A DNA stretch of 64,000 bases from Raillietiella orientalis (taxonomy: Eukaryota): contig JAYWIR010000032.1 of assembly GCA_036172245.1 (NCBI GenBank), positions 2,604,001 to 2,668,000 of the forward strand, read 5' to 3'. The position numbers and the translations under genes are program-made. Below are positions 8,201 through 49,983 of this stretch, in pieces. Within the stretch, counting starts at the first letter, position 1; every line of letters begins with the position of its first letter. The notes under the pieces were generated by a model. It searched no databases and was not told the origin of the DNA. It worked only from the letters and a program-made list of their open reading frames with translations.

Positions 8201-11200
8201 ACAAAGAATACCATGTCCGTCGCCACTTCCGAGGTACGAAAGATATGAGATCCCTTTCCTGAAGTCCTTGGCTGTATTTCGTCTTTATAGATTTGCTTTC
8301 AGATTGCAGCAGCATGGCCGCAACCCGAGAGCGGCTGCTAACATCTCCGAAATGAAAGCCGTCTCCTGGCCCTCGCGACAGAAACGCAGCTTTTTAGGGA
8401 CCGCCGTCTTCTGCGTAAGACAGACGTAAGAGTTCTCTACAGTGATCGAACAACGAAGAAAAGTCCTCACTTTTCGTGCCACTGAGCTTTGCGGCCCCCT
8501 CCTGAACAATTTTCAGCTTTACGGCGGAGTGTCGCACGAGCGGGCAAGGTGATGTGCTCCCGGAAGCAAAACAACTGTCAAGACCCTCATGCACAGTTCT
8601 CTCCCCAAGAGTGATTGCTGGCTATAGAGGTTCGGCACATGAGGACTAGCAAGAAGAGAATTCTCTTCTTGATGATGCATCATTCAATCTCTTTCATGAC
8701 TGCATCCCAGTTCGGGAAGAGAGGTGACATTCAGAAACGAAAACTGTTGAAACACCTGCAAAGATCCTGGAAGTTTATCCCGGAGATGTTGCGTTTTGTC
8801 TCTATAAATGCACTCCACTTGCCTCGAGGAAACACTCAGCCGTAGGCGGACCGCTCCTAATCTTTGTCTGCTCCTCAGTGCGTCGATTAGACATCCCATC
8901 GCCTCCGTCGGCATCCACATGTGGACGTTCACCGCATTCTTTTCCACGTTGATAGCCGTTTCCTGGTAAGGATGCGGGAGTTTCCTTCTTGAAGACTCGC
9001 ACCTCCCCACGTATTTCCCTAGGGCGGCTACATCGTCGAATAAGGAAGAAACCTTTAGACTTTTTTTCAATCAGGTGAGTGCATATCCCTTATGAGTCTC
9101 TCACACTACCAGAACACAGGACTTCTACTTCCTGGAGGCGAATTTGGGAACTCCGAAGGTTCTCCTTCCCTTTTCCCTCGATGCTGGAATGTACTCGAGT
9201 GTGGTCGCGTTGAGCTTCTGCTGCCCAACTCCGTATTGCAGTGGGTGACCCTGGCGCGCGCGACTGCACTTTCCATGTTTGCTTTTCCATTGCAGAGCAT
9301 CGCCCCAGAATCAGGGTCGTGGATTCCAATACCTTTAACTTCCAGAAAGTGGACAAAACGAAGGTTTTTGGGACGGAACACCAGTCTTTCGTCGGGAATG
9401 ACACACTCCAGGTAATAGCTTTTTCCAGGTTGAGCGTCATCCTTGGAGAAGTCGATCTCACGCTAATGGGTCCAGCTGCAGAGTAGCCGTCATTGACGAC
9501 GTCGAGTTCTGATGCTCTGTATTTCCATTTCTTCGGAATGACTATGCGCGGTTTGTGTGTGCACGAAGAGCAGAAGCACCTTCCTGAGAGTGTAGCGTTT
9601 TTCTTCCTGTTTTTCCCCGGTGGCAAGTGAACTCGGTAGCCATGGGTTTGAGAGCGTTTTTTCCTCCACGAGCAGAGGAATCGGAATGCGCACGTAAATC
9701 CAGAAACACCGAAAGGGTTTCGCGCGCACTCCGACGAATGCATGCATTTGACAGCGTCTTCTACGAGGGATGGTTGGGATTCCAAAGGGCAGTGTTTTCG
9801 TGAAAGCTTTTTAAACTGCTCGAGAAAGTAAGGACATGCAGATAACCGCCGTTCTTACATTCATTACAGGTAGACACCGAAAGTCACAGTAAATCTTCCT
9901 TCTTTCCCCCGTCTGTTCCGATGAGAATTCTTTCAAGTTATGGGCCACAAAGAAACAACCCGATCCCAAATCTTCGACCTTACTTGGGTTTTTTCCCCAT
10001 TAACAAGCTCTTCCTCAAGAAAATCATTCAACAAAATCGGCTTCCTTCTTTGAAGATGACCGTGAAGCTGCGTAGGTGAGAACACCCTCTGGCCGGTTGA
10101 TCGAGGTGTCCTGACGTCAATTGCAGAGGGGAAGGTGGATGGCTTGCTCTGACCTCAGGGGAGTCAGTCTCTGCAAAACGGGATGCATCCGTGAAGCTCA
10201 CTGGTGGTAAGGACCAGAAGACCTATTCGCTCAAAGCTCACAGGTGAGATTCTTTCCTTCACGACTTTTTTGATAAAATGGCCCTACTGGTGGGCAAATG
10301 CGCACGGCAGCACTTTCTGCATTTACCACCGAATGAACTCATTGCCCCCATTCTCTACACGGTACCCACTTTTAGTCTGATCACACATCACACACAGCAT
10401 TCTCTGTCGAAGGAGATTTCCCCTTTGTGCACGAGCAAACCCTTTTCGGTAGCCGCGAAAGATTCCTTACGTGAGCGTATCCTCTTTTAGAAAGCAACCG
10501 CCGACCTTTGGTGACCCCTTTTTTTGCTGATAGGGGAGCGCTTACCACAGGGATGGCTAAATGACTTGCTTACACCCATCAGATTCTCATTTGCTCCTCT
10601 GCTTCCAGCCTCAGCATAGAAGTAGACAGGAAGGTGACACATACATCAAAAGGCATCACGGCTCACCTTAAATTGGACACCTTCTTGGCTGAGGCTCCGG
10701 AAAAATTTGTGAGGGATTTGTTAACCGCATTGGACCCCAGATCAAGAAAAAGCCAATCTGGGTTGCAAGAAGTTGGTCTTCAATGACCTTTGACTATTCA
10801 CTGTGGAAAATTCCATTTCAGATCAACTGCACACCGAGAAAGAATCCCCTCGTGCACGTCTCGATCACACAAAAATACAAAATCCCGTTGGATTTCGGGA
10901 GCTACCACTTCAAGGTAACGCTTCTTCCTTTTTTTCTTTTGTGTGGCGGTCTTCTTGTTAAATCGGCCTCTGAATCGCTGCGATCGCTCCCGGGTGCAGG
11001 GGACCTGAGCGAACGGGGGAATCCCCGTGTCCCTGATTCGTGTCCTCAAAGTCGCAGCCCCGATCTCATGAATGACCGGTCAACTGGTTGGGTGAATTTG
11101 TCTGAGGGAGCGCTGGCGGTGTCATGGAACACGGGAGGAAACTGCGAGCACAACCACAGCTGGATTTCATCCGCTTGAGCTCATGTCCACCATTCCGCTT

Positions 11201-13033
11201 CTCCTCAGCCTCAGTTGCCCGAATTTTGCGATGCATCTTTCCCACGAAGAATTTTCTGGATTTCTCCGTGTGTGAGGCTCTACAGCTCGAGCTGTTCAGT
11301 AGCCCTCAGGCACGTTGGGTGAAGCCGCACCTATTTTCCGCAGAGAGCAGCGGTGGGCCTGCAGGGACATCTGGTGCTTTCCCGGAAGGGGCTCCTATTT
11401 ATTCCCCATGAGATTTATGGGGTGTTACGGTGCGGGAGAAGGGCGAGCAAAGAGCAGCCATGCATGCTCCCTGAAGTAGGTGGACGTCACTCCCAGCTAA
11501 TCCTTCTCGAGTTCGCGCCACTCCAGGAAAGCTTTTGATGTCGATGTTATCTCTTGCAAACGGGGACGTGGGTTCTCCCGAAAAGCATCGTGAAACTGCG
11601 AAGTTGGGATGAGTCTCCTTGGCATTCGCATTCGCCATTTGTTTCTCGCTGCTTGCGCTCGCGCATGCGCGGTCAAACACTTCGCCGAGCTCGCGCGCAA
11701 CTGATGCTGAGCGCAAGGGCAGAGCTTCCGTTGAGAGGATTCGATGTGCTAAGTATCGTCTGATCCACGCAGCGCTCTCGCTCTCTTCTGAAAAAGCGTT
11801 GCTCTTCTATGTTTAACCAATTTTCATGAGGTCGTCATTCGATCCGCTTAGTAGCGTAGAAACCTCATTTTCCTGTAAGATCTTCTCTTCCGAAAAGTTC
11901 CCTGAGACTTTGATTTTTCCAGATAAAGGACAAGTGCTATCTGATATTCATCCCTTCCAAAAGCCTTCAATTTCATCTTTCAACAAGGATTATAGAAGGC
12001 AAACTCGTGGAAGTAGACTTTCAGAAGAATGAACTTCGTTTTGGAACTGATGTGTTGCCTGCGCCTCCCCCGCCTCCGCGGCCTGTAGATCCAACAGCTA
12101 CGGATTTAAATTACTATAGATAACGTCTTGGATTTGAGGATCACCATGTTTTGGGAAGTTCGTTCGGAGTTTGAAAGCACTGATGACAACTCTGCTGACG
12201 CACTTCTAAAATCACGTAGCGGATCGGAATTTGTTTGGAATGCTTCTATTAAAAGAGCACGCAGTTTTTCTGAGTTGTGCAAAATAAACGCATGCTGTCA
12301 GGGATTCGGTCCATTCCAAGGTTTGGATAACGAAAAAGAGTCGCCACTCCTTGCGGTCGACGCAGCACGCATGTTGCGTATTGCCCACAGCATCCTTTTG
12401 TTCTCCACCTCGACGTCCGCTTCGATTCCGCCCAGGACAGCTTCTGCGAATGACCTTTTCTCGCCTTTCCCGCAGAGGCTGCTCGCGCGTGTGGTTGCCA
12501 CACTGAAGCGGTTGATGCTTCGCCTACTTCCTTGGAACGGGTCGGACATCCCTCTTCATGATTGAGGAGGAGGCACCTCTGATCTTCTGCCTTTTTCACC
12601 AGAATTCAAAGTCACGAGGCCATTTGAAATGGAGAATGCATAGTCCTTGCGAAGGAGACGCCGACTTCGTGCGTGGAGTGTGCGTCTTTAGCGCGTCATG
12701 CCTTTGCAGGTGCGTCCGACTTCTCGCACGTGAGTGACTACGTAGAGAAAGGTGACCCGTGGAGTAAATGCGAGGCCGCGGCCGGATGCGGCCATGTACA
12801 GCGCGCGCACACATCATAGGCCTCCGCTGGCTCGCTCTCGCTTTCCACGCATCATTCACGCATCCCAGGATAGCGCCGTTTTTCCGGTGCCAGAGTTCAC
12901 GAGCACCGGAATTAAATATGGCACCTGGATTTAAAGTTTAGTCTACCGCTTAAGCCAGCTGTCTTTGTGTGCGTGAGCCAATCACCGACTTTCCACCTCT
13001 TTGCCGCTGCATAGGGGTGCCCTTCGGACACCA
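5298..13033 (+). repeat. Segmental duplication unit, copy 1 (7.7 kb, contains gene A)
   Basis: Collinear and near-identical to 23295-31030 at a constant offset of 17,997, from gaagggt(a/g)gcctcc to ttcggacacca. Confidence 0.95.
8919..12123 (+). CDS. Secreted pepsin-like (A1 aspartic protease fold) pseudo-protease, paralog A, 9 exons, 371 aa
   Basis: Exons 8919-8965, 9023-9074, 9120-9240, 9296-9411, 9870-10075, 10127-10243, 10609-10771, 10822-10914, 11923-12123. All introns are GT-AG and phases join into one 1116-nt frame. Signal peptide MWTFTAFFSTLIAVSWA. FYFLEANLGTPKVLLPFSLDAGMYSSVVALSFCCPTPYC aligns to the pepsin YFGTIGIGTP...FDTGSSNLWVPS..C segment. Also GNDTLQV, AHLKLDTFLAEAP (for AIVDTGTSLL.GP), INC, and KCYLIF...VEVDFQKNELRF. 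Same exon structure in three paralogs. Confidence 0.9.
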
Positions 13034-15720: not shown

Positions 15721-16029
15721 AAGAGTAATTCTTCCTTCTCCCACGCCGAATTCGATTGCGCTGTCTTGTGGCATGGCAGCCGTTGAACACCGGCGATGCT
15801 TCACATATGCACACACACAGGAGAAAACTCAGAAACTCGGTGTCTCAAGAAAAGCTGGAGCAGGGAACGTCCGCTTGCTCTTGCGCTTCGACATGTCATC
15901 CGATCACCTCAAAGCGTCGATTTTCAAATGGACAATGAGCGCTGTACAAGATCTTGCTATGGCCATAACAACGAACCTGCAACCTGCCATCCCCTCCGCT
16001 ACGACTCACGTCGGCAGAGGAGGGGATGG

Positions 16030-21676: not shown

Positions 21677-24600
21677 ACCCGGATATGCCGGGGCATTTAT
21701 TGTCAAAATTTTCACAAGAGTTCATGATAGAGTAAAAAATTTGTTTCTGTGGTACAACACTCGGTTCTATTACGCTGAGTAGACTTGTGATGAACCGGTA
21801 CGCTGAACGGTGGCGTCCTCTCCATGGGAGAAGTGAAAGGACAAAAGAAAAAAAAAAAAAGGAAAAGAATTCAAAAGGTTGAAGAATTGTTTCTTTAGGG
21901 AGAGGTGGAAAGGGTTTAGAATACTGTTCTCCTGGATCGGTCCCCTGCATTATGTGAAGGATGCCGACAAGTGCTGCTTTTGCATCATTCCGCTGGGACC
22001 ACCTTGTCGCGATCTCCAAAAAGATCGTGGTCCAGTGGGATGGCGTCTTTGCTGCTTTACCCTCTTCTTTGGGCGTTCCAACTTGCAAGGTATCCGCGAA
22101 CACAGCAGAGAACTGCAAGGGTTGAGGCGGGGGGACAATATCTGCCATGAAGAGGCGCCGGAAAGTGTCTTTCGGGTCGCCTACTGGAATATTCATTATA
22201 GACGAGAGTCGAACTCAAGGTTTACCGAGGGCAACACACTCTACTAGGAGATGCGGGAAGATTAGCTTCCTCCGCACTCTTCCCAACAGGCATATACACT
22301 TCCAAGTGAACAGTGAGAAAAGCGTGCTCTGAATAGCATTCCCCCATGTAAAAGAGCAACGCCGTCCCTTGCCACTCCATCGGGAAGGCGCCGCTATCCC
22401 AACACTCTGTAGGCCACTTAACCTCCTCCGAAGGTACTGCGAGTAGATCGTCACAGAGCACAAGTCCTTTAGGCGGGAAGTTCGGGGTCGCAGCGTCCGC
22501 TTACTCCCAAGACGTCCACGCCATTAATGATTTTTTCGAACCTTCGATAAGGCGGGATTCCTCCCACGTCGACGAGTCATCACGGTCTCCATCGTCTCTT
22601 TGAGAGTGGTCAGCAACAGAGCAAGGAACGACGCTTAGCACTGCAAACACCATGGGACGATCGGGACAAGGTGTCGATTGTCTGCTGAAGTAATGTCGCC
22701 TGGGGCGTCTGTCTAGGATCGGTACTGCATACGACCCCGAAGGCGACCGTTTTCGCGAAGATGGTCACGAGAAAAAAAAAGCCGGCTTCCTGCCATGGGT
22801 GTAGAACTCGCATTGCATGTTTTCCTGCCTGCCAGCTTACTTCTCATCACCTATACACACCTCGGTACTTTTCAGTTGGTTTCTCTCCAGTCCGCGGGAT
22901 TACTCTCACAATCAGGTGTACGCAAGCGGCTTGTTATCGTCCCCACTACCGGAGCAGCAGGATTCCAATGACGTCACGAGGGAACTCTCACCAAAAGAAA
23001 CGAAACTTCGATGCGACCGCGACGAACAGCTCCAGTCGCCTGCTGAAGGAAATGTGAATGGAAGCTCTACTCCCACTGTAGGGTCAGCAGTCCAGGAGGA
23101 CGGCCGGGAAACCTTTCGGAAGCAGATACTGATCGCCGCTTTCGACTTCTGTTCTCAAAACAACCGCAAGCGTTTCGGGACTGTTCGCTCCCTATTGAAC
23201 GGCCACGATCTGGTCGCGGAGAATCCAGGAATCTTCCTGACTGTACAGGCGCAACCTTCCGCAACTACAAATGCCGTCGCGCTAGAGAAGAGGAGAAGGG
23301 TGGCCTCCGTGATTCTCCCGAAAATAGCGCAGGCCTGCCCCGGAAGCAACAAGGTTATTGGCACTTGTGATAAGAGCGCTTCGGTCACAGTCTGGCCAGC
23401 AGCTTCGCGCCTGCATTCCTCGCTAGGATGCGATATTCGGCCCCGACGTTGCGCACCTCTGCTTCTTCAGGGAGCACAGGAGCTCTGTCTCAGCGGAACG
23501 ATGGTTTCCGCATCTGGCTCCCCAACCTGTGCAGCTGGAGACTCATCTCTACTGAGGAATTCGGCATGCACGCCTCCCATTCCACAAATCAGGGGTTGGA
23601 ACAACCAGGAGAGCGAGCGAAATACCGTCCGGCGAGAAGCTCTTTCCTGCACCGCCTCTTTCGTGATATCCTCGTAGCGAAGCAGCACCGCCGCGGGGCG
23701 TTTCCGGATGCACCGCTGTAACGCTGTTTCCCAGCAGCAAGAACGCTGCCGTTTTTCTTCTGACATGACTGACCCATCGAGAGGAACCGACGCTCTTCGT
23801 CCGGAGATGGCACCTGTAATTGCTAGGGAAGCCCCACCACGAGGACAGCTAAACGGCATCTTCCCTTGCAGACTGAGCACACAAAAAACGGCACCTTACA
23901 GGCGAAGGTGATGGGTCAAGCTGTCCGCGGAGTAAGGTCAAGAAATTCTTTTCGAAAAAGCAGTCCTTCAGAGCAGTCGTTATGTGCTACCGCTAGTCGC
24001 TATCACTTCCGGCGCACTCCCTCCTGCTGCCAAACGGGACAACCTCCCGATTGCCAACCTCTCATCTCCTTGCGTAGAGACGACGCCTTTAAGACTAGAA
24101 AGGTAACAGTCCTTGCGTGAACGCCATTCTTTCCGTCACTCTCCGCTTCCTTCTGGGAAACCGTAGAAACCCAGGTGACCAACGGTACGCATGAAATCCG
24201 CGTCAGAGCTCAAATTGCTGATGCTGGCGTAACTCCACAGCTCGTCGGGGTATGCAAAGTGGCAGGAAATCCACTTGCTTCTCCTGTTTTCCCAAGGAAT
24301 CGTCGATCTTCCACGGTGGAAACATTGGAGCCTTCGAGTGGTCGCAACTCTGAGGCAGCAACGAAGCTACATCCTGGCAACCGAATACGCGCCAGGGGAT
24401 ATTGCGCGCCGGTAGACACCACATCTGCCAGCTTTAATTTCTTGCCTTCAAGGCTGTCGTCTCGTGTAGGAAATGAGGTTCCTCTGTCATCATTGACCAG
24501 AGAAGGGATAGTCTTTCATTCCCACCTGCGACCGAAACTTTCTCTTGGAGCCGGGAAGCTCTTCCCTTCTTTCCCTTATAGTGCCTTGAGGATACATTGG

Positions 24601-24850
24601 CCACATATTCCGAAGGCTCTTTTCATCCTTGAAAACCGGGTCAGAATCGGTTGATAGCGACAAAACAGGAGCGCTCTGAGGCCTGAGCACCATCATGGCT
24701 GAGTGCAGCACAGTGGACGGAGAGCGCAGCTTCAGAAAAGCCACTCCCCTGGCAACGAGCCCCCTCTGTCGAAATTGGCGTTCCGATGGAATGCGAAAAG
24801 AGGAGCTCGCGGCTACCCTGCATAAGGTGCATAACAAGCGGCGCTACCGG
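21677..24850 (-). mobile_element. Old family-1-like LINE ORF2 fossil with 3' end; the upstream part is duplicated at about 5298-6850
   Basis: The 3' part is clear (DLLAVPSEEVKWP...FPMEWQ, DTFRRLF, AATAAA and hairpin at 21677-21701). The upstream part is only weakly recognisable (ARTVTFL, PSLVNDD, STVLHSAMMVLRP). Confidence 0.5.
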
Positions 24851-27800
24851 CACTGATTTCTTATTCCTCCCCCCCTCACCATGGTCACGATCGTTCTCGT
24901 TTCTCTACCGTGCCTTCTATCCGCTCTAAACAGCGCTCCTCATTAAAAGCCTAATCCGCGGCACCTGCGGAATTGAGAGGGGAATATGGTTTTTCCCGGT
25001 TTCGAGTTGTCCGTCCTGGAGCCAAGGCCATGCTACGGTCGGGTGGAAACTCTTCCGTGCCCTGACCTTTTGGCGAACGGAGCTTCCTGTGCGTATGCCC
25101 GTTACGGCTGGCCAAGGAGGACGTGCCGGTGTCGGAAACGCTATCTGGTCACTCCACATCGCGCCTGCGCCTCGGCGTTGCCTTCCTTCTTGCCGCGAGC
25201 GAGGTTTCTTGGAGCAGAGACAGCCTCTCCTGCCGGCATCACTAATGCAGTAGGTCAGAATCGCCACCCCGTCTGTGAATCCTAGAACTTGCGGTCAACT
25301 GTAACTACTGAGCACAGTTGCGGAAAGCTCGCGAAGCGCACAACTTTCTGTGAAGCGACGGCGGTCTCTCAGTCACAGCCTCGAGGGAAACCCAAATGTC
25401 CTACAGAAGCGCTATGCATCTAAGTGTGGAAATCGGGTCTGAATCCCTACTCTGCAGTTGGAGAACCTCCGATGCAACTCGGAAGATTTACACGAGCGCC
25501 GCTGTTCCCAGTCCTACACTCCCAGGCGCACTGTGGGCTAAGGCGCTCTGCAGTTTAGCACTTCCTCTGTCAGAGGTTTTGCATCGGCTGCCGACAGAGA
25601 TGTTTATTCGAGGGATGGCTGGCAGCAGACATTTATGAATGAGGAACCAGAGACCAGTCATTTCTCGCGACAGGAGCAAACACAGTTTCGCGTGAAATTT
25701 GGAATGCCTGTTTCCATGGGGACTGGAGACGATAGAAAAAAAGAGGGAGTGAAAAAGAAGCGCTTTGGTGGAGCATGCATTCCTGCCGTATTGAGCGCTT
25801 CTCAACGCTAGCAGCTGTCGCTTCCGGGATGCGAGAACCAGGAGAGATACTCCTTAGCCGGTACCCTCCACAGCAGACAAGTATAACGGTTCCCGCCTGT
25901 CAAAAGAAAGAAAACTTCAAAGCCTTCGCATCCGAAAAAATGGTTGGTGCTTTTGGTTACCCTACTGAGAAGGAGATAGACACGGAACGCATGGGGCGCC
26001 GAAGAAACGCGAATCCATTCTTTTTTCCAGAGTTCAGCAAGAGGCATCTGAGCGACTGATACAAGGAAGAGAGGGATGGTCATCCACGCTTACTCGGCCT
26101 TCAGGGAATGGGCGAGACGCTCTGAAGCAGCCGCATTGGAACGGCAAGGCTGCTTCCGAGATCAACACGGCGATCGCTGATGGGAACGGCCGCAGAGACA
26201 AAGAATACCATGTCCGTCGCCACTTCCGAGGTACGAAAGATATGAGATCCCTTTCCTGAAGTTCTTGGTTGTATTTCGTCTTTATAGATTTGCTTTCAGA
26301 TTGCAGCAGCATGGACGCAACCCGAGAGCGGCTGCTAACATCTCCGAAATGAAAGCCGTCTCCTGGCCCTCGCGACAGAAACGCAGCTTTTTAGGGACCG
26401 CCGTCTTCTGCGTAAGACAGACGTAAGAGTTCTCTACAGTGATGGAAGAGCGAAGAAAAGTCCTCACTTTTCGTGCCACTGAGCTTTGCGGCCCCCTCCT
26501 GAACAATTTTCAGCTTTACGGCGGAGTGTCGCACGAGCGGGCAAGGTGAAGTGCTCCCGGAAGCAAAACAACTGTCAAGACCCTCATGCACAGTTCTCTC
26601 CCCAAGAGTGATTGCTGGCTATAGAGGTTCGGCACATGAGGACTAGCAAGAAGAGAATTCTCTTCTTGATGATGCATCATTCAATCTCTTTCATGACTGC
26701 ATCCCAGTTCGGGAAGAGAGGTGACATTCAGAAACGAAAACTGTTGAAACACCTGCAAAGATCCTGGAAGTTTATCCCGGAGATGTTGCGTTTTGTCTCT
26801 ATAAATGCACTCCACTTGCCTCGAGGAAACACTCAGCCGTAGGCGGACCGCTCCTAATCTTTGTCTGCGCCTCAGTGCGTCGATTCGACATCCCATCGCC
26901 AACGTCGGCATCCACATGTGGACGTTCACCGCATTCTTCTCTACGTTGATAGCCGTTTCCTGGTAAGGATGCGGGAGTTTCCTTCTTGAAGACTCGCACC
27001 TCCCCACGTATTTCCCTAGGGCGGCTACATCGTCGAATAAGGAAGAAATTTTTAGACTTTTTTTCAATCAGGTGAGTGCATATCCCTTATGAGTCTCTCA
27101 CACTACCAGAACACAGGACTTCTACTTCCTGGAGGCGAATTTGGGAACTCCGAAGGTTCTCCTTCCCTTTTCCCTCGATGCTGGAATGTACTCGAGTGTG
27201 GTCACGTTGAGCTCCTGCTGCCCAACTCCGTATTGCAGTGGGTGACCCTGGCGCGCGCGACTGCACTTTCCATGTTTGCTTTTCCATTGCAGAGCATCGC
27301 CCCGGAATCAGGGTCGTGGATTCCAATACCTTTAACTTCCAGAAAGTGGACAAAACGAAGGTTTTTGGGACGGAATACCAGTCTTTCGTCGGGAATGACA
27401 CACTGCAGGTAATAGCTTTTTCCAGGTTGAGCGTCATCATTGGAGAAGTCGATCTCACGCTAATGGGTCCAGCTGCACAGTAGCCGTCATTGACGACGTC
27501 GAGTTCTGATGCTCTGTATTTCCATTCCTTCGGAATGACTATGCGCGGTTTGTGTGTGGACGAAGAGCAGAAGCACCTTCCTGAGAGTGTAGCGTTTTTC
27601 TTCCTGGTTTTCCCCGGTGGCAAGTGAACTCGGTAGCCATGGGTTTGAGAGCGTTTTTTCCTCCACGAGCAGAGGAATCGGAATGCGCACGTAAATCCAG
27701 AAACACCGAAAGGGTTTCGCGCGCACTCCGACGAATGCATGCATTTGACAGCGTCTTCTACGAGGGATGGTTGGGATTCCAAAGGGCAGTGTTTTCGTGA

Positions 27801-30800
27801 AAGCTTTTTAAACTGCTCGAGAAAGTAAGGACATGCAGATAACCGCCGTTCTTACATTCATTACAGGTAGACACCGAAAGTCACAGTAAATCTTCCTTCT
27901 TTCCCCCGTCTGTTCCGATGAGAATTCTTTCAAGTTATGGGCCACCAAGAAACAACCCGATCCCAAATCTTCGACCTTACTTGGGTTTTTTCCCCATTAA
28001 CAAGCTCTTCCTCAAGAAAATCATTCAACAAAATCGGCTTCCTTCTTTGAAGATGACCGTGAAGCTGCGTAGGTGAGAACACCCTCTGGCCGGTTAATCG
28101 AGGTGTCCTGACGGCAATTGCAGAGGGGAAGGTGGATGGCTTGCTCTGACCTCAGGGGAGTCAGTCTCTGCAAAACGTGATGCATCCGTGAAGCTCACTG
28201 GTGGTAAGGACCAGAAGACCTATTCGCTCAAAGCTCACAGGTGAGATTCTTTCCTTCACGACTTTTTTGATAAAATGGCCCTACTGGTGGGCAAATGCGC
28301 ACGGCAGCACTTTCTGCATTTACCACCGAATGAACTCATTGCCCCCATTCTCTACACGGTACCCACTTTTAGTCTGATCACACATCACACACAGCATTCT
28401 CTGTCGAAGGAGATTTCCCCTTTGTGCACGAGCAAACCCTTTTCGGTAGCCGCGAAAGATTCCTTACGTGAGCGTATCCTCTTTTAGAAAGCAACCGCCG
28501 ACCTTTGGTGACCCCTTTTTTTGCTGATAGGGGAGCGCTTACCACAGGGATGGCTAAATGACTTGCTTACACCCATCAGATTCTCATTTGCTCCTCTGCT
28601 TCCAGCCTCAGCATAGAAGTAGACAGGAAGGTGACACATACATCAAAAGGCATCACGGCTCACCTTAAATTGGACACCTTCTTGGCTGAGGCTCCGGAAA
28701 AATTTGTGAGGGATTTGTTAACCGCATTGGACCCCAGATCAAGAAAAAGCCAATCTGGGTTGCAAGAAGTTGGTCTTCAATGACCTTTGACTATTCACTG
28801 TGGAAAATTCCATTTCAGATCAACTGCACACCGAGAAAGAATCCCCTCGTGCACGTCTCGATCACACAAAAATACAAAATCCCGTTGGATTTCTGGAGCT
28901 ACCACTTCAAGGTAACGCTTCTTCCTTTTTTTCTTTTGTGTGGCGGTCTTCTTGTTAAATCGGCCTCTGAATCGCTGCGATCGCTCCCGGGTGCAGGGGA
29001 CCTGAGCGAACGGGGGAATCCCCGTGTCCCTGATTCGTGTCCTCAAAGTCGCAGCCCCGATCTCATGAATGACCGGTCAACTGGTTGGGTGAATTTGTCT
29101 GAGGGAGCGCTGGCGGTGTCATGGAACACGGGAGGAAACTGCGAGCACAACCACAGCTGGATTTCATCCGCTTGAGCTCATGTCCACCATTCCGCTTCTC
29201 CTCAGCCTCAGTTGCCCGAATTTTGCGATGCATCTTTCCCACGAAGAATTTTCTGGATTTCTCCGTGTGTGAGGCTCTACAGCTCGAGCTGTTCAGTAGC
29301 CCTCAGGCACGTTGGGTGAAGCCGCACCTATTTTCCGCAGAGAGCAGCGGTGGGCCTGCAGGGACATCTGGTGCTTTCCCGGAAGGGGCTCCCATTTATT
29401 CCTCATGAGATTTATGGGGTGTTACGGTGCGGGAGAAGGGCGAGCAAAGAGCAGCCATGCATGCTCCCTGAAGTAGGTGGACGTCACTCCCAGCTAATCC
29501 TTCTCGAGTTCGCGCCACTCCAGGAAAGCTTTTGATGTCGATGTTATCTCTTGCAAACGGGGACGTGGGTTCTCCCGAAAAGCATCGTGAAACTGCGAAG
29601 TTGGGATGAGTCTCCTTGGCATTCGCATTCGCCATTTGTTTCTCGCTGCTTGCGCTCGCGCATGCGCGGTCAAACACTTCGCCGAGCTCGCGCGCAACTG
29701 ATGCTGAGCGCAAGGGCAGAGCTTCCGTTGAGAGGATTCGATGTGCTAAGTATCGTGTGATCCACGCAGCGCTCTCGCTCTCTTCTGAAAAAGCGTTGCT
29801 CTTCTATGTTTAACCAATTTTCATGAGGTCGTCATTCGATCCGCTTAGTAGCGTAGAAACCTCATTTTCCTGTAAGATCTTCTCTTCCGAAAAGTTCCCT
29901 GAGACTTTGATTTTTCCAGATAAAGGACAAGTGCTATCTGATATTCATCCCTTCCAAAAGCCTTCAATTTCATCTTTCAACAAGGATTATAGAAGGCAAA
30001 CTCGTTGAAGTAGACTTTCAGAAGAATGAACTTCGTTTTGGAACTGATGTGTTGCCTGCGCCTCCCCCGCCTCCGCGGCCTGTAGATCCAACAGCTACGG
30101 ATTTAAATTACTATAGATAAGGTCTTGGATTTGAGGATCACCATGTTTTGGGAAGTTTGTTCGGAGTTTGAAAGCACTGATGACAACTCTGCTCACGCAC
30201 TTCTAAAATCACGTGGCGGATCGGAATGTGTTTGAAATGCTTCTATTAAAAGAGCACGCAGTTTTTCTGAGTTGTGCAAAATAAACTCATGCTGTGAGGG
30301 ATTCGGTCCATTCCAAGGTTTGGATAACGAAAAAGAGTCGCCACTCCTTGCGGTCGACGCAGCACGCATGTTGCCTATTGCCCACAGCATCCTTTTGTTC
30401 TCCACCTCGACGTCCGCTTCGATTCCGCCCAGGACAGCTTCTGCGAATGACCTTTTCTCGCCTTTCCCGCAGAGGCTGCTCGCGCGTGTGGTTGCCACAC
30501 TGAAGCGGTTGATGCTTCACCTACTTCCTTGGAACGGGTCGGACATCCCTCTTCATGATTGAGGAGGAGGCACCTCTGATCTTCTGCCTTTTTCACCAGA
30601 ATTCAAAGTCACGAGGCCATTTGAAATGGAGAATGCATAGACCTTGCGAAGGAGACGCCGACTTCGTGCGTGGAGTGTGCGTCTTTAGCGCGTTATGCCT
30701 TTGCAGGTGCGTCCGACTTCTCGCACGTGAGTGACTACGTAGAGAAAGGTGACCCGTGGAGTAAATGCGAGGCCGCGGCAGGATGCGGCCATGTACAGCG

Positions 30801-31030
30801 CGCGCACACATCATAGGCCTCCGCTGGCTCGCTCTCGCTTTCCACGCATCATTCACGCATCCTAGGATAGCGCCGTTTTTCCGGTGCCAGAGTTCACGAG
30901 CACCGGAATTAAATATGGCACCTGGATTTAAAGTTTAGTCTACCGCTTAAGCCAGCTGTCTTTGTGTGCGTGAGCCAATCACCGACTTTCCACCTCTTTG
31001 CCGCTTCATAGGGGTGCCCTTCGGACACCA
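23295..31030 (+). repeat. Segmental duplication unit, copy 2 (7.7 kb, contains gene B)
   Basis: Direct repeat of 5298-13033 with scattered substitutions and no net indel. Confidence 0.95.
26916..30120 (+). CDS. Secreted pepsin-like pseudo-protease, paralog B (recent duplicate of A), 9 exons, 371 aa
   Basis: Same exons as A shifted by +17,997. Splice sites and frame are intact. About 7 amino-acid differences from A counted by eye (T>I, A>T, F>S, R>G, H>Y, Q>P, G>W). Confidence 0.88.
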
Positions 31031-31039
31031 CTTCGGCGT

Positions 31040-35706: not shown

Positions 35707-38700
35707 ATGTGGACATCCACGGCATTCTTCTCCGCTTTAATTGCGGTTTCCTGGTAAAAATGCGGGCAGCATGCTTGTAGGTGACTTTCACATTCCCTCT
35801 CGCACTTTCCTAGGGCAGCCACACTTCTTCCTGCGGAAGAAACCTTTCCACTTCGTTACAATAAGGTGAGTGCAGCCTTGCGCCTCCCTCACACTCTTAG
35901 AATGCAGGGCATCTACGTGCTCGAAGCTTCTCTGGGATCTCCGCCTCAACCCTTATCCCTTGCATTGGACGCTACAATGTACTCGGCTGTGGTCTTGCTG
36001 AGCCACTGCTGCCCAACTCCGTATTGCAGTGAGGGACCATAGCGCTCGCGACTAACCTTTCCGTGTTTGCTTTTCCATTGCAGAGGACCGTCTCAGATTC
36101 AGAAACAGGGATTCCGATACATTTCACTTCCACAAAGTGAAGAAAACGGAAATCTTCTGGACAGAATACCAGTCTTTCGTCGGCAATGACTCACTCGAGG
36201 TAATTGCCGACTCGGGATCGAGCGTCAAGAGCTGTTGCATTCGATTCTACGGGAATGGATTCAGCTGCAGAGTTGCGGCCATCGGCGAGTTTCCCCAAGT
36301 CCCACAAGGGGTGGGGTAAATTTATTTTTCTATAAAAATACACTTTTTACATTCACACTCTCATTCACTCAATACAAACACTTTGCACTTGGGAGTCCTT
36401 GGGTTGCACTGGAGTTCTGCTTTTCAGGGGAGGAATCCAGCTGGATGGTCCCGAGCGTCGTCCTCGATCCTCTTCAGGATGAATCGGTACGTCCAGGCGT
36501 GGATCTTTCCACAGTTCCTGATACCGATTTCCCTCTTCAGAAGCCCTTGTAGGATCTCCATCGGTGGTGCGGCTCTCCTGGCTTTCCTCATTTTCCACCA
36601 CCGCACAAGTATGGCGGTGATGAAGAGGGCTATGGTCGTCCTCACCATGGGATTGTAACAGGGAACATTACCATCCCCCTGAAACATCCCGGCGAGGATC
36701 TCCATAACGGACTTGTTGGTAAGTCCTATGATTCTATTCAGGATCAGCCAGTCATGCAGCAATGTGGGACACGTCAAGACGTGAAGTCTCGTGTCGATGT
36801 CTCCACATGCTGTGCAGTCTCGGTCTTCCCGTCTTCCGGTGAAGTGCTGCAATCGTGACCCACTCTGGATTCCTCCATGATAAAACATCAGGAGGTCGTC
36901 CTGGGTCCCCGGCGGAAGGTCACTCCTCCAGAGCGTCGTGCCGATCGCTAGCAGGTTGATGCGATCGCTCCCGTAGCGGTCGGCGGCTTCTTGGAGGGCA
37001 CTGGTGTCTCTTTCGTCCTCCTTGATCAATCTGCGGAGGTTCATTTTGGTTACCCTCGACCACGCGAAGTCGTGGTGGTTAATCCACACCTCGCGGGTGT
37101 GATGGGTGAACCTCCCTAACATCATCTCTATGTACCGAAGTACACGAGAGTGATGTAGGTATCCTCCTCGGCGCCATTCCTGGATCCGTTGCAGGGTAAC
37201 TCTGGGCCGCTGGTAGATCCAGCTTCTCGTGTCCGGAGGGACCGGAAGCATCCAAGGGATCACCAGGATGGACTCGTCCTGCCAGAATTCCCTGCTTCTT
37301 GGCACGATCTTCATCTTGTGCTTTCGCACCAGCCGTTGTTTTCGTCTCCAGGTCGGGTCGATGCTGATCCATTCCCCTGCTCGACCTAGCAGCGCAGTCA
37401 TCAGGCCTTTCGAGTTGTTGAGCAACAACGCGTAGGCCCTGTGCGCCGCATACGGCCAGTCATCCCAGTGTGTGGCTATATCCAGGATGTGTCGCGTATC
37501 CATGATTTCCATGGAATGTGCAGGCGATTTCATCCCGGAACCGCCTTCTTCCCTGGGACGACACAGGGGTTTTAGACGAACTCTTGGGCGATAGTGGCCC
37601 CACAATGTTTTGCGCTGCAGCTTCTCAACTTCTCTCGTGGTTTCTTTATTCATTCTAGCGAAGGCCGCCCCGAAGAGTACTTCTGGAAGAAGTACTCCGT
37701 TCCATAGGTTGGTTCTCCGCTTCATGTTGAAATCCAGTCGAGTGTACTTCGCTGCTTCCTTGGCCGTTTTCCCCAGGATTTCCGTCCACAGCAGCTTCGA
37801 CGCAGAGTCGTCTCCGATGTAGACTCCCAGGTACTTGGCCGTATTCACCGTACGGAATCCACTCCCCGTGAGAGTGGAGAGGTTCAGGATTCCGACGGGC
37901 AAAAGCTGGCTCTTCTGGGAATTGATTTTTAAGTCCAAGCCCTGTTCCATCAGGTCTACCACATCCAGAAACGCTCGTTGATTTCTCTCTCCCTTGATGA
38001 AGAAGAGATCATCAGCGTATGCCAGATGGGTAAGACGCTGGCCATCGATGGTTATTCCATTCAGTCGTCCGCTCTTCTCGATAAAGGACGACAACGCCTC
38101 CATATAGATGACGAACAGCATCGGACTTAGAGAGTCGCCCTGTCGGACTCCTCTTTCCATCCTGATTGCTGCCGTCTCCTGGCCGTTGATCTTGATCCGA
38201 GAGTACTGGTTCTCGAGTACCGCCCTCACGAAGCTGCTGAAGTGTTCCGGAAGCCCTAGCTTCTCCAGAACCTTCAGCAGCATCCCGTGGTCGATGGAGT
38301 CGAAGGCCTTCTCCATGTCAGTGAACACCAGTACCAGGTTCTCGCCGACGTATCGGCTGAGTCCAACAGTGACCTGGGCACACTTGACATTGTCCGACAT
38401 GTGTCGTCCTGGGACTGCACATGTTTGGACCGGAGAGATTAGCGGCCATCAACGACGGCGTCGATCGGTGATATTCTGCATTTCCATCCCTTTGCGGATT
38501 ATGCGCGGTTTCTTCGCACGAAGTGCTGTGGCACCATCGTCACCAAGTTGGGTGCTTCTTCCTGTCCTTGTTCGGGGCCGAGGGTCCTGGAAACCTTAAA
38601 AATGCCAACCGTTATTTTCTTAGCTAGCACGGGAACAGGATCGCGCTAGCAAATCTGAAAGAGTCGGGGCCCTTCTGTGCGCGTTGTCATGGGTGCAAGA

Positions 38701-40945
38701 GTTTGTGCGCGTCCTCTGCCGCATGGCTTGGACTTCAAGGGGAAAGCGCGTTAGTAGAAGCCGAGTCGAGTCAGCGAAACAGTAACAACGTGCGGATGAC
38801 CACCGTCGTAACAGGAATTCGTTTCAGGTCATGACAGATCGAGGTGAGAAATCGGCGTTGCTGCCGACTAGAGTCCCGATACGCGTTGTTTCATCTTATG
38901 AGCCTGTACGCAACCACCCTTACCCAAAAGTAAACCCCTATTCTGGCAGTTTCCCCATCACCAAGAACTACCTAACAGCAATAAGCCGTCAGCAACGGTT
39001 TCCCTCTTTCAAGATGACGGTGAGCTTCAAAGGGTAAGAAGACGCGGCGACCTGATGAGAACCGTTCCATGACGAGATTCGCAGAGAAAGGGGTGGAGAA
39101 CTGACGCTGAGCGCCAGCGACAGCAAAGTGAGGCGAGGTTTCGACGCCACAGTGCATCTCCGAAACGCCAAGGGCCAAAATGGCTATTCGTTCAAATCCA
39201 AAAGGTGAGGTGCTGTTCTTCGGCGTTCCCCCAAGAAAGTTGACCTACTGAAGGAAAGGTGCACCGCCGAGACCGCCGCATGTGCTTGCCGCCGGCTACG
39301 CCCTTTCCCGCTTTGCGAGATGGTTCACACTCGTATTCTGACCTCAGTTCACGCACATTGGAGGTCTTTATGCAGAAAATCTTCCCCGTATAGGGTGAGC
39401 GAATTCTCAACGATCGTCGCAAGAGGTTATCCTTTCCACGTCCACGTTACCCAGCTAGGAAGGAAATGCCGTCCCTCCGAGACAGGAGAAGCTCCAATCT
39501 GTAGATAGGGTGGTCCCTGTCACTGAATGGGCAAGATGACTTGCCGCCAAGAGATGCTCATTCTCGTCTCTCCTTCCAGGATCCAGATATCAACGGAAGA
39601 CGCAGATGTACACGCAACAGAAGATGTTACGACTCACCTGAGATTGGACAGTTTCTTGAGTATCGCTCCTGAGGCTTTCGTAGAGGACCTGGCAGCGGCA
39701 GTCTCTATCGACGCGACATACAAGCATATAGGATTGTTCCGGGTTGGTCCCCACTGACCTTAGAAAATCCATGAGAAAGCGTCATTCCAGGTTAACTGCA
39801 ATACGGAAACCAGTGCTACGGTAGACGTCTGGATCACCGAAAGCTACAAAATCAATTTGACATTTCGTCAGTACACATTCGAGGTGATTCTGCTCTCCCC
39901 TTGGGGTGGGTGTTGTTGCAAGCCTCCGTAAAGACGGCCGCCGATTCGCTGCATTCGCACCTGCCTCATCCCATGCGCAAAAATCCTGAGCTCTCTCTGG
40001 AACCTCTCGTGTCCCTGATTCCAGCTGACCCGCAGCCTCAAACACGTGAATGACTGGTGAACTCGTTGAGAAGAGTTGCCTGAAGAGGCGCTGCCGATGA
40101 CTTCGACCGCTGCGAGCAGGAGAGCAGCTGGATGCCATCCGCGCGACTGCATGTTTCCCTTGCCCCATCTCCCCAGCCGCAGCAGCATGGACTTGGCGAT
40201 GCATCTTTCCCACGAATTATTTTCTCATTCATGTTGAGCGTGGGGCTCCGCTGCCCGGACTGACCAGAAGCATTCGAACGCCCCTCGGGAGGAGCAGAAC
40301 GACACAATGCGGGTACTCGAGAGTAGGTGGACGTCGCTCGCAACCCATTCTTTCCGATGGCGCTTTAATTCCGGAAAGCTTTAAATCTAGATTGGACCCC
40401 TTGGGAATGGAATGTGGGGAGTCCCAGAAAGCATCGGGAGGCTGCCATTTTTGCATCCGCCTCGAAGGTTTCCGCTCCCACCTTATGCCACTCGCGCATT
40501 GTCTTTCTCGCTGCACGCGCACACGCATGCGCGTTTGGTGCCTCACTCGAACACCTCGAAGCACTGCGTGCACGCGACTCTGTAGCCGAGTGCTTGCGTT
40601 CCTTGGAGACCATTCGATGTGCGTGGTGGTCCACAATCCATGCCCCATCCGCTGTCTTTTTTGAATACGCGATGCTTTTGTGCTTTCTCCCTATTAGCTC
40701 GACGTTTACGTTCGATGCACTCGGTTGCGTGAGCAACCCCTTCTCTTGACAAACATTCTCTTCGGACACGTTTCATACGTGTTTCTTCCCTTTAGATGGA
40801 CAACAAATGCTACCTCATATTCTTTGATAGCGATTCCGACGAGTTTGAACTTTCTACGAGTGTATTAGAAGGAAGGACGGTCCAAGTGGACTTCAAAAAG
40901 AACACCCTTTCATTCGCATTGGAATACGCTTCAACGGACGGATGA
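35707..40945 (+). CDS. Secreted pepsin-like pseudo-protease, paralog C, 9 exons, 355 aa; LINE inserted in intron 4
   Basis: Exons 35707-35753, 35814-35865, 35908-36028, 36084-36199, 38828-39033, 39085-39204, 39580-39742, 39791-39883, 40796-40945. Translation: MWTSTAFFSALIAVSWA...GIYVLEASLGSPPQPLSLALDATMYSAVVLLSHCCPTPYC...THLRLDSFLSIAP...VNC...KCYLIF...VQVDFKKNTLSF. Confidence 0.87.
36284..38441 (-). mobile_element. Young 5'-truncated LINE (family 2) inserted antisense in intron 4 of gene C, 9-bp TSD
   Basis: Open frame 36424-38400 with DMEKAFDSID, GVRQGDSLSP, YADD, KYLGV and CTAC...HVLTC. TSD gcggccatc at 36275-36283 and 38442-38450. The rejoined flanks match intron 4 of paralog A. Confidence 0.93.
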
Positions 40946-44050: not shown

Positions 44051-44154
44051 AGGTTCCCCGTTTCCTATTCGTTGTGAAGGTTCCAGAACTACAGATATCC
44101 GAATGCCACTTCTGCCACTACCGCTGATACATCCATATCCGTAAAAGAGGGTCT

Positions 44155-45779: not shown

Positions 45780-46560
45780 GACTTCCTATTTGGCCGCGAG
45801 GCTGCTGCCCATATTTTCCCTGAAAGACAACAGCACTACGGCATGGGAAGCTGTCAATTCGAACTATTCAGTACGGTACGCTTCAATTTTCATTTCGGCG
45901 CGCACGTACTTCTGGAACGTTCAGTTGTTGAAAGAACAGCGCAGTAAACGCAGCATTTGGTCCGGGCTGAGATCGGTTGTGCTACGCTTACGTGCACGAG
46001 GTTTTTTAGAAGCAGGTTCTACCGTTCCAGGGGCAGCTGAAAATCCATATGCCGTTCTTGGCCGGCGTGTCCACCTGCCGCAGGTGCTGTCCTCAGTGGA
46101 GGAGGCTGCCTCGCCGGCGCACAAGGAGAGATCTTACGCTGCAGGTGGCTTACTGAACTGGAAGGCGTGCGGGTTGGCACCAAGTGCTACTTCACCATGA
46201 CATACTGTCCGAAACTGGGCGCAGCGCGGTTGTGGAGGTCTCTATGCGGACCTACGAGGTCCAGGATCCTCCTGAAGGACTTGGCGACTCCATATCGAGA
46301 TGTCAGCTTGGGCATCCAGAAGCTGGACTGGATCGGGAGCCAAGTGCATTTCCAAATGCAGGTACTTTGTGCCAAGCTTTGGACGATTCCGTGGTTTCCT
46401 CCTGCGTGCCTGCTGCTGCGGCTTCGCTTCAGCAGCGGAGGTGCTCTCGCGGCTGCTATACTCCATGCACGCCACGAGCTCCAGCTTTTTCGATTCCCGG
46501 AAATGGATGAATGCAAGCGCTGCGTTCCCGGATCCATCTGCTGCTTTCCCAAGCAGTCCC
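45780..46560 (+). mobile_element. Decayed family-1 ORF2 fragment immediately upstream of gene D
   Basis: RSRILLKDLATPYRDVSLGI...QVHFQMQVLCAKLWTIPW resembles RARWKDLCAPRRDGGLGL...QLQFRTIALVAKLWSASW. Confidence 0.75.
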
Positions 46561-46936
46561 GCACAAGCGAGCACGGAGAACGAGAAGACGCTCCCGGAAG
46601 AGAAACCCTCATGCGCAGTAACTCTTATGAGTGATTGCTGCCTACAGAGGTGCAGCGCACACAGGAAGGAGGGAAAAGAAGTCCCCACTTGGTGATCCAT
46701 CATTCCATCACTTTTTTGACTGATACGAACATCTCGAAGAGGAGTGACATTGAAGACTAAGAACTGCCTAAACACCTGCAAAGGTCCAGGAAGATCATCG
46801 CATGGATGATCATCTCTTCTGCATATAAGCACTCAAGAAGTGCGTCGAGGAAACTCACAGGTAGGAAAAGATCAGTCGTTTTCTTCAGACCGGTGCTGCA
46901 TCGATTCGGTATACGAACGCGTCCATTGGCTTCTAA

Positions 46937-49900
46937 ATGTGGACATCCACCGCATTGCTATCCGCTTTGATAGCGGTTTCCTGGTAAGGATGAGGAAAGC
47001 CTGCATAACACCACTCGCACTACCTTAGGGCAGTCAACATCCCACCTGTAACAGAAATCTATCCTCTGCGCAACATCGAGGTGAGTGCAGCCCATCCAGC
47101 TTCCTCACACTCTCGGCATGAAGGGATTCTACTTGCTGGAGGCTTTTCTGGGAACTCCATCCCATCCCATGCCTGTGCAGCTGGATGCTGGAATGTACTC
47201 CAGTATGGTGGTTCTGAGCCACTGCTGCCCCACTCCTTATTGCAGTAAGTGACCCTGGCGCCCTTGACTGTTCTTTAAGTTGGCCTTTCCATTGCAGAGG
47301 ATCGGCCCAGGTTCAGCAACAGAGATTCCGCAACCTTTATGTTTCAGAAAGTGGACAAAACGAAGGTCTTCGGGACAGAACACCTGTCTTTTCTCGGGAA
47401 TGACACAGTCCAGGTGATCGCTCTCTCCCGGTTCAGCGTCGACAGTTGCGGAAGTCGATTTCACGGGAATGGGTAAAGCTGCAAACTTGCCAGCGAAGAC
47501 GTGCATCGATGATGCTCTGCACTTCTATCCCATTGGAAAACCTTGAGCCCTTTCTCCGCACGACGTCGCTTGTTTCCTACTATTCCTTTTTCGGTGCTGA
47601 GGGTACACGAAAACTGGAAGCTGCCAACACGGTGGGAACGCCGGTACTCGGATGCGCATGCGATTTCGAAAGAGACGGGAATTCGGTGAGTGTTTTGATG
47701 GGTGAAAAAGTTCGACTGCCTCCCTCTGCACCGAATGGTTTGGACTTCAAGGGGAGAGCGTGCTCGTGACAGCCGAGTCGAGTCCCCGAAACGGAGATAA
47801 TATGTGGATAGCCATTGTCCTAAGATGAATTTATTTCAGATCATGAGCGCAGAACATAGGAAATCCTCATTGTTTCCATCAGTTGTTCCAATGCGCGTTG
47901 TATCATCTTATGCACCTCGACGCAACAGCCTTATCCCTCATTTGGGTCAATTCGTCAACAGTTTTCCCATTAACAAGCTCTACCTCAAGGAAATCATTCG
48001 ACAAAAAAGAGTTCCCTCTTTAAAAATGACAGTGTCGTTGCATGGGTAAGGACACACCGACCTGCTGAGAATGGTGTCATGACGTCAATTGCAGACAATC
48101 AGGTGGATTGCTCACTCTGTCTTCAGTCCCATCAAACTCGCTAGAATCGCTTGCTTCCTTGAAGCTCATCGAAGCTAAAGGCCAAAAGACCTATTCGTTC
48201 AAAGTACACAGGTGAGATTTTTTCCTACGTGATTTCTTCGATCAAATAGCCCTACTGGGAGGCAGGAGCGCATGACAGCATCCCCTGAGTCTACCACTTA
48301 CTAAACTCATTTCCCCTACCTGATATAGTACTCACTCCTATTTTGTGCACAGTTAATATATATTGGCCCCCTATATCCAAGGAGCTTTCTCCTTAGTAGA
48401 TGAGCAAACGTTTGACCCTTACAGACCACGGATGCTCCATTCTGTGAACAGGAAGCGTTTGCCATAGGAATTGCCAGATGACTTACCACCAGAAGATGCT
48501 CATTAGTCACTCTCCTTCCAGTCTCAGCATAGAAGTAGACAGGAAGGTGACGCATACATCAAAAGGCATCACGGCTCACCTTAAATTGGACACTTTCTTG
48601 GCTGAGGCTCCGGAAAAATTTGTGAGGGATTTGTCCACCGCATTGGACCCCAGATCAAGAAAAAGCCAATCTGGGTTGCAAGAAGTTGGTCTTCAGTGAC
48701 CTTTGACTATTCACTGTGGAAAATTCCATTTCAGATCAACTGCACTCCGAAAAAGAGTCCCCTCGTGCACGTCGCCATCACCCCAAAATACGAAATCTCG
48801 TTGGATTTCGGGAGATACCACATCAGGGTAACGCTTATTCCTTTTTTCCTTTGTGTGGCGGTCTTGTAAAATCGGCCTCTGAATCGCTGCGATCGCTCCC
48901 GGGTGCAGGGGACCTGAGCGAACGGGGGAATCCCCGTGTCCCTGATTCGAGACCTCAAACTCGGAGCCCCGATCTCATGAATGACCGGTCAACTGGTTGG
49001 GTGAATTTGTTTGAGGGAGCGCTGGCGGTGTCATGGAACACGGGAGGAAACTGCGAGCACAACCACAGCTGGATTTCATCCGCTTGAGCTCTTGTCCACC
49101 GTTCCGCTTCTCCCCAGCCTCAGTAGCCCGAATTTTGCGATGCATCTTTCCCACGAAGTATTTTCTGGATTTCACCGAGTGTGAGGCTCTACAGCTCGAG
49201 CTGTTCAGTAGCCCTCAGGCACGTTAGGTGAAGTCACACCTACTTTCCGCAGAGAGCAGCGGTGGAACTGCAGGGACATCTGGTGCTTTCCCGGAAGGGG
49301 CTCCCATTTATTCCCCATGAGATTCAGGGTGTGTTGCAGTGCGGGAGAACGGCGAGCAAAGCGCAGCAATGAGTGCACTCTGGAGTAGGTTGGACAAGAG
49401 CGCGTATATCCAGGAAAACTTTTCGTGTCGATGGGAATCTTGGCAACTGGTCGGGGGGGGTCCCAAGAAGCATCGCGACGCTGGCATATTGGCATGCAAC
49501 TCGTAGGTGTCCGCATCTCCCTTCTAACCTTCGTTCATGCGAAACAGTCTCTCTTCCTGCTTGCTTACACGCATGCGAGTTTGGTGCCTCATTCGACATC
49601 TCGCCGCACCTGCGTGCAAGTGATGCTGTACGCGAGTGCAGACGTTCCCCCGATCCGCGCCTAATCCGCTGTCTCTTTTGAAAACGCGATGCTCCTCTGC
49701 TTGAAGTGGGTAATCGCAATGTTCGCTTTCGTGGGCAACTCGTTCTCTAGTCAGAAGTACTTCATCAGACTTTTTGCTCTTCCAGTTAAAAGATAAATGC
49801 TACCTGAAATTCATCCCTTCTAAAAGGCTTGAGTTGCAACTGTCTACAGTCTTTCTGGAGAGCACTATAGCTCAAGTTGACTTCGCGAGGAACGAAATTA

Positions 49901-49983
49901 AATTTCATAAGCCACAGGTGGCTTCTTCCCCAGATAAAGATCAAACTTTTCTACCTGCGCCGGCACCGGATTACATAGATTGA
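46937..49983 (+). CDS. Secreted pepsin-like pseudo-protease, paralog D, 9 exons, 370 aa
   Basis: Exons 46937-46983, 47029-47080, 47124-47244, 47298-47413, 47840-48045, 48095-48211, 48522-48684, 48735-48827, 49786-49983. Translation: MWTSTALLSALIAVSWA...GFYLLEAFLGTPSHPMPVQLDAGMYSSMVVLSHCCPTPYC...AHLKLDTFLAEAP...KCYLKF...AQVDFARNEIKF. AATAAA near 50030. Confidence 0.88.

Follow-up and report, generated by a model that had tools for sequence, protein, structure and literature searches.

Four tandem pepsin-like genes of Raillietiella orientalis in which a basic residue appears to replace the second catalytic aspartate

Catalysis by the acid proteases of the A1 (pepsin) family requires Asp215 and the Asp-Thr/Ser-Gly psi-loops. 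Bla g 2, an A1-fold protein of the cockroach, retains both aspartates and carries a Tyr75Phe change, and TAXI-type proteins of plants inhibit microbial glycanases. Here we describe four genes, A to D, that lie in tandem on a stretch of 64,000 nucleotides from Raillietiella orientalis (GenBank assembly GCA_036172245.1, contig JAYWIR010000032.1, positions 2,604,001 to 2,668,000 of the forward strand; referred to below as the window). They have a lysine or arginine where the second catalytic aspartate is expected, and they probably encode secreted, non-catalytic A1-fold binders comparable in kind to Bla g 2, the modern PAGs and TAXI/EDGP.

Expanded families with inactive A1 proteins are well established; such proteins are already known from ruminants, cockroaches and plants, and some of them have lost the C-lobe aspartate (PMC11313796). 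Loss of that aspartate goes with inactivity in four of the 13 pepsin-like structures reviewed there. Like A to D, the plant proteins TAXI, EDGP and basic 7S globulin keep the N-lobe Asp, have the C-lobe Asp replaced and are inactive; unlike in A to D, the C-lobe position is Ser and neither G-loop glycine is lost (PMC11313796). The cockroach proteins Bla g 2, Per a 2 and Lma-p54 are likewise arthropod, secreted and inactive, with a function described as unknown or binding (PMC9541408); protein searches with partial queries found no sequence link between A to D and this group. The modern PAGs also form an expanded nine-exon A1 family with substitutions in the catalytic center (PMC2682831), but they are proteins of the mammalian placenta that have stayed near to pepsin, and their exon 2, which encodes the prosegment, is still 151-166 bp long (PMC5486050). 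These likenesses are in kind and come from descriptions; by descent, A to D are placed in A1 only. An exact-word search of open-access full text found neither a crustacean family of inactive A1 proteins nor Lys or Arg at position 215.

Four genes with one exon plan and a pepsin-type ancestry

The four loci were found through self-comparison and six-frame motif searches; they are homologous and all lie on the forward strand (Table 1). When spliced at predicted GT-AG junctions, each yields nine exons with no internal stop, and the introns interrupt the same aligned codons in the same phases (2,0,1,0,2,2,0,0) in all four, as had been claimed by an earlier reading made from the letters alone (the sequence-only reading). 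A tblastn search of the window with the four proteins found no fifth copy. Intron 2 of D ends in an AAG acceptor. Intron 7 opens with an unusual GTTGGT donor in A, C and D (10772-10821, 39743-39790 and 48685-48734), and an in-frame stop lies four codons into this intron, so that its retention would truncate the protein. AATAAA is present downstream of every gene. Upstream of the ATG, D has TATAAG at -113 and C has CATATG at -118, which, like the box of A in Table 1, are matches to a consensus only.

The exon plan is that of a pepsinogen. In a human pepsinogen-like gene the exons are 56, 163, 118, 119, 200, 117, 145, 99 and 150 bp long (PMC5486050), and exons 1-8 here measure 47, 52, 121, 116, 206, 117, 163 and 93 bp. 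Intron phases are equal at all eight introns, if intron 1 of the human gene is taken as phase 2, which its 56-bp exon implies; the published Table 5 gives that intron a phase of 0 at one end and 2 at the other (PMC5486050). The residues on either side place introns 2-6 and 8 where the human gene has them and intron 7 two codons downstream; intron 1 is not alignable. Only exon 2, which encodes the prosegment, differs much in length (52 vs. 163 bp). The first catalytic Asp is correspondingly early, at residue 54 as against a median of 84 and a minimum of 58 in 104 references. An inhibitory prosegment would be dispensable in a protein without activity, and an exon 2 that is 37 codons shorter agrees with this.

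Profile comparisons point in the same direction. The A1 references came from five viral-contig and four genome-contig loci, identified by motif, and from 120 proteins; 127 of 133 mature domains were kept and reduced to 36 below 78% identity, from which we built our own profile, distinct from that of Pfam. D scored 29.4 bits, an E of 2.5e-11 for a single comparison, and its match spans profile positions 19-333 of 335. C scored 22.2 bits; the highest score among 1000 shuffles was 5.9, and reversed sequences were below 0 or unreported. A reciprocal profile made from A, C and D reached at least 5 bits in 10 of the 120 A1 proteins, with tandem two-domain proteins on top, and in none of 39 reverse transcriptases or 120 reversed A1 sequences. 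The HHalign alignment covered 311 columns, with an identity of 19% and E=0.0016. The resemblance to cathepsin D/pepsinogen (MEROPS A1, PF00026) is collinear over nearly the whole mature domain, with the two catalytic motifs in exons 3 and 7 and with the equivalents of Asp32, the first Cys loop and Cys249-Cys282 kept in A to D. The differences are the low identity (about 19%), the Lys or Arg at 215, the missing prosegment and one extra, odd cysteine.

Several results weigh against this assignment. A and B scored only 4.0 and 3.2 bits, under the best shuffle, and are assigned to A1 because they are 65% identical to D. The HHalign probability was 16%. The A1 family was absent from the Pfam matches of all 16 single exons and all nine unspliced in-frame read-throughs. 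The profile check proposed by the sequence-only reading thus found nothing with Pfam on exons and unspliced pieces and gave a match with our own profile on spliced C and D. The best PDB match of an exon-3 profile was plasmepsin V at only E=0.28, and a single-sequence model of an unspliced part had a predicted local-distance difference test score (pLDDT) of 34. Even so, the view that these are not A1 proteins was rejected on the profile scores, the reciprocal profile and the nine-exon phase pattern. Together these point to an animal cathepsin D/pepsin gene as the likely ancestor, in agreement with the ancestry first proposed from the letters.

Searches for relatives with parts of these genes, a check that the sequence-only reading had proposed, found none. 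A protein search with the exon-3 profile gave none among 528 candidates at E<=10, and exons 5-9 of C with the introns left in matched none of 1.84 billion proteins at E<=0.001; as both queries were partial, this is weak evidence of absence. A metagenome scan gave four loci from 66 pattern matches, all short chance matches without a further exon, and tblastn against plasmids gave only four chance matches at E=7. Annotation pipelines would overlook such genes, since there is no detectable relative in the databases and Pfam misses the exons taken singly.

The former catalytic site

Motif 1 of A reads Asp54-Ala-Gly where pepsin has Asp32-Thr33-Gly34, and its Asp falls on Asp32 with a posterior of 0.95-1.0 in all four proteins (posteriors are from the forward-backward calculation on the A1 profile). 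Motif 2 reads HLKLDTFL in A, B and D and HLRLDSFL in C. In A, B and D the lysine (Lys241 in A) falls on Asp215 with a posterior of 0.96, as against 0.01 for the Asp two residues on, which aligns instead to Gly217; in C, Arg242 falls on Asp215 with a posterior of 0.68. All five MAFFT multiple-alignment modes put Lys/Arg in the Asp215 column, and HHalign does so at 0.77. Spacing agrees: Asp215 and the following Pro are nine residues apart in 120 of 127 references, and here the Pro is nine from the Lys and seven from the Asp. Pairwise alignment of D with 33 of the 36 references (three lack the motif or contain X) selected Lys in 28-31 of the 33 under five of six settings, and Asp in at most one.

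This register has points against it. Pairwise alignments of A with the 33 references were unstable (Lys in 0-25, Asp in 0-2), and those of C alone were split (Arg in 2-10, Asp in 0-8, mostly neither). Two trial alignments of an unspliced C frame placed Asp244 or Asp236 on Asp215. Moreover, the references are narrow, being mostly insect cathepsin D, so that gaps around the motif may have been given too low a probability. The alternative register would read Asp-Thr/Ser-Phe in the C-lobe.

The damage extends beyond position 215. Relative to pepsin, further replacements are T33A, S35M/Y, W39V, Y75F, T216L, G217D, G302S and D303T, where Tyr75 is numbered as in the sequence-only reading. Phe98 occupies the Tyr75 column with posteriors of 0.88 (A), 0.83 (B) and 0.98 (D); in C the column is ambiguous between Trp99 (0.54) and Phe98 (0.18). 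Gly302 of the C-lobe is replaced by Ser with posteriors of 0.93-0.97 in A, B and D and 0.62 in C. The hydrophobic-hydrophobic-Gly of the N-lobe has no counterpart and no consistent Gly, and Cys206-Cys210 is gone. The two fireman's-grip threonines are thus missing, and so are the two psi-loop glycines. Of the marks of an active peptidase, as defined in PMC11313796, A to D lack the D[T/S]G of the N-lobe (its Asp is kept), the D[T/S]G of the C-lobe, the psi-loop Gly and the Tyr75/Trp39 pair. Inactivity is therefore not tied to one residue, since Thr33, Ser35, Trp39, Tyr75, Thr216, Gly302 and the prosegment have also been lost; judged by these residues, there is no working A1 site in either register. 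The sequence-only reading was right about both motifs, the AAA codon, the basic residue at the second catalytic position and the loss of the Trp of NLWV. Its change of the flap Tyr75 to Phe holds for A, B and D and is doubtful for C, and in ascribing inactivity to the loss of Asp215 it was correct about the loss and understated the damage.

It should be noted that the lysines of A, B and D count as a single observation, because A and B are duplicates and exon 7, which holds motif 2, lies in a high-identity tract shared by A and D (97% identical at the DNA level). The arginine of C (codon AGA vs. AAA) is a second observation. Four independent occurrences of Lys/Arg were accordingly rejected in favor of two independent lineages. 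The motif-2 block is identical between A and C at six of eight residues, in an exon with 19 of 54 identical; this gives p=0.017 for the fixed window and p=0.34 for any window, and a core strand would also give such identity.

Duplication, constraint and possible function

Protein identity is 98.1% for A/B, 65% for A/D and 49% for A/C and C/D. The strong divergence that the sequence-only reading had seen thus applies to C and partly to D, and not to the A/B pair. A and B lie in the two copies of a segmental duplication, which differ by 109 substitutions and no indel and have different flanks. Differences between A and B number 13 in 1113 exon positions and 10 in 2089 intron positions (Fisher p=0.045, uncorrected for the uneven divergence along the block), and the upstream DNA differs more (71 of 3621). 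D shares with A a tract that covers exon 7, exon 8 and the start of intron 8, at 91.7% identity in one block; identity in 150-column windows is 88-97% inside the tract and 45-80% outside. It is most simply explained by gene conversion. The local duplication of 7,736 bp and this conversion-like tract bear out the earlier suggestion of an expanding family.

The reading frames are under purifying selection, which is real but moderate. Under the GY94 codon model, omega is 0.46 for A/C, 0.46 for C/D and, with exons 7-8 excluded, 0.38 for A/D; all three lie below 1 (p<1e-6 in each case). No frameshifting indel is found in exons as against 11-12 expected per pair from intron gaps (a rough rate). For A/B, with seven nonsynonymous and six synonymous changes, omega is not distinguishable from 1 (p=0.16). 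Strong positive selection across the whole gene was rejected, omega being below 1 as a whole-gene estimate. On the other side, non-coding divergence (Kimura two-parameter distance 0.43-0.68) is near dN (0.47-0.49) and about half of dS (0.86-1.06), which makes the constraint modest; gapped alignment of non-coding DNA inflates identity, and the shuffled control gave 0.40-0.46.

Each protein begins with a hydrophobic stretch on its own exon (11-residue Kyte-Doolittle maximum 2.0-2.1), which is a putative signal peptide, as the sequence-only reading also had it. A sequon at Asn108 and five cysteines are kept in all four proteins, and three of the cysteines, encoded by exon 3, are at residues 67, 68 and 73 in the first Cys loop. 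With five in all, one cysteine would be left without a pair and might join dimers or attach a partner. A, B and D have Pro-rich C-terminal tails (12046-12120 in A, 49909-49980 in D), which C lacks, and computed isoelectric points (pI) of 9.5-9.7, as against 6.3 in C and a reference median of 5.2 (n=36).

We prefer the view that A to D are secreted binders without catalysis. The four genes would descend from an animal cathepsin D/pepsin-type gene whose proteolytic activity was lost before C split from A/B/D, and the products may have been kept as secreted, probably glycosylated, two-lobed proteins. Their job would be to bind a partner, be it an enzyme, a peptide, a glycan or a surface, possibly through a remodeled cleft that presents Asp32, His213, Lys/Arg215, Asp217 and Phe219. 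An ion pair of Lys/Arg215 with Asp32 or Asp217 that closes the old site is a plausible proposal, of which the sequence-only reading had put forward the pairing with the retained Asp. The basic A, B and D and the near-neutral C probably have different partners. The sequence-only reading had also suggested decoys or effectors, for which nothing in the window speaks. Four more dead pepsins alone change no principle; a large repertoire of binders, if true, would mean that a protease fold had been reused independently and as extensively as in the PAGs.

The proteins may instead be made in bulk, as secreted, storage or matrix components of cuticle, shell, egg, gland or seminal secretion, in which the pepsin scaffold persists as a stable frame, nothing specific binds in the cleft and the number of copies is a matter of dosage. 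Constraint that is only moderate (omega 0.38-0.46, dN near the non-coding divergence), recent duplication with homogenization, and a motif-2 block that is not unusual across exon windows would all suit such a role, for which Lma-p54, a protein of the epicuticular surface, and Bla g 2, a secreted gland product whose function is unknown, offer models (PMC9541408). What makes it unlikely is that C and A/D keep the basic residue, the His and the Asp at the old site across a dS of about 1, and that the charge of the paralogues differs so strongly. A bolder extension of the binder view, which we hold to be quite unlikely, is that A to D are one branch of a large, lineage-specific crustacean family of prosegment-less pepsin scaffolds that duplication and conversion have diversified into secreted recognition proteins, with the old site rebuilt as a conserved Asp32/His213/Lys-Arg215/Asp217 group of new binding or catalytic chemistry.

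A to D might also still be enzymes, either because the Asp of LD[TS] serves as Asp215 after a two-residue deletion or because the site has been rewired around Asp32, His213, Lys215 and Asp217. Asp54 is invariant, an Asp-Thr/Ser is kept in all four motifs 2 and varies as in D[TS]G, and some alignments of C do choose the Asp. Malarial HAP, in which His replaces Asp32 of the N-lobe, is active with a single Asp, but HAP keeps the C-lobe Asp, which is the one missing here (PMC11313796). Besides the posterior of 0.01 in A, B and D, the register required would turn Gly217 into Phe, and Thr33, Tyr75, Gly122 and Gly302 are lost in both registers, so that continued catalysis is decidedly improbable. Finally, it is very improbable that some or all copies are unexpressed relics (B as a superfluous second copy or as the other haplotype retained in the assembly, C silenced by a long interspersed nuclear element (LINE) in its intron 4), since the A/B omega, not distinguishable from 1, and the LINE-rich surroundings are answered by open frames, splice sites and a downstream AATAAA in all four genes, by the TATA-like boxes of A and D, and by a repeat that covers only 7.7 kb of an 18-kb spacing and has differing flanks.

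Feature coordinates and mobile elements

Table 1. Positions in the window of the genes, active-site codons, duplicated tracts and the intronic LINE
Feature	Position	Strand	Remarks
Gene A	8919..12123	+	9 exons, 371 aa, computed pI 9.7
Gene A exons	8919-8965, 9023-9074, 9120-9240, 9296-9411, 9870-10075, 10127-10243, 10609-10771, 10822-10914, 11923-12123	+	
Gene B	26916..30120	+	371 aa; near-identical to A, 7/371 residues differ; exons = A + 17997
Gene C	35707..40945	+	9 exons, 355 aa, computed pI 6.3
Gene C exons	35707-35753, 35814-35865, 35908-36028, 36084-36199, 38828-39033, 39085-39204, 39580-39742, 39791-39883, 40796-40945	+	
Gene D	46937..49983	+	9 exons, 370 aa, computed pI 9.5; top scorer on A1 profile
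Gene D exons	46937-46983, 47029-47080, 47124-47244, 47298-47413, 47840-48045, 48095-48211, 48522-48684, 48735-48827, 49786-49983	+	
Motif 1	A 9180..9188, B 27177, C 35968, D 47184	+	DAG in A, B, D; DAT in C
Residue in Asp215 column	A 10670-10672, B 28667-28669, C 39641-39643, D 48583-48585	+	A Lys241 (AAA), B Lys, C Arg, D Lys
TATA-like box of A	8803..8808	+	116 bases 5' of ATG; consensus match only
Segmental duplication, copy 1	5298..13033	+	7,736 bp; holds gene A
Segmental duplication, copy 2	23295..31030	+	98.6% identical to copy 1; holds gene B
Probable gene-conversion tract, D with A/B	48451..49395	+	Covers exons 7-8 and the beginning of intron 8; counterpart at 10534-11485
5'-truncated LINE	36282..38448	-	Antisense in gene C intron 4; 674-aa open frame, RVT_1 E=7e-22

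In A and D the site of C's intron-4 LINE is empty, and in C it is bordered on both sides by a diverged repeat of about 20 bp. This LINE shares 94% identity over 383 bp with a copy from 63619 (63619-64000), which lies inside the ORF1-like frame of another element, and the two begin at the same end sequence. A further LINE at 52709-57996 has a 574-aa ORF1-like frame and a 992-aa endonuclease/reverse-transcriptase frame, with one stop before the zf-RVT part; the closest of 39 matches to its reverse transcriptase is 75% identical (a JGI protein) and the next 27%. Pfam matches were obtained for six of 125 other frames of the window, all to retroelement domains.

Outside the window, five contigs of giant-virus metagenome-assembled genomes (L005-L009) contain cathepsin D-like genes that are complete and have the two catalytic motifs. 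Two bacterial genome contigs (L012 and L013) encode aspartic proteases of animal type, that of L013 being 99% identical to cathepsin D of Bombyx mori; contamination is the probable source.

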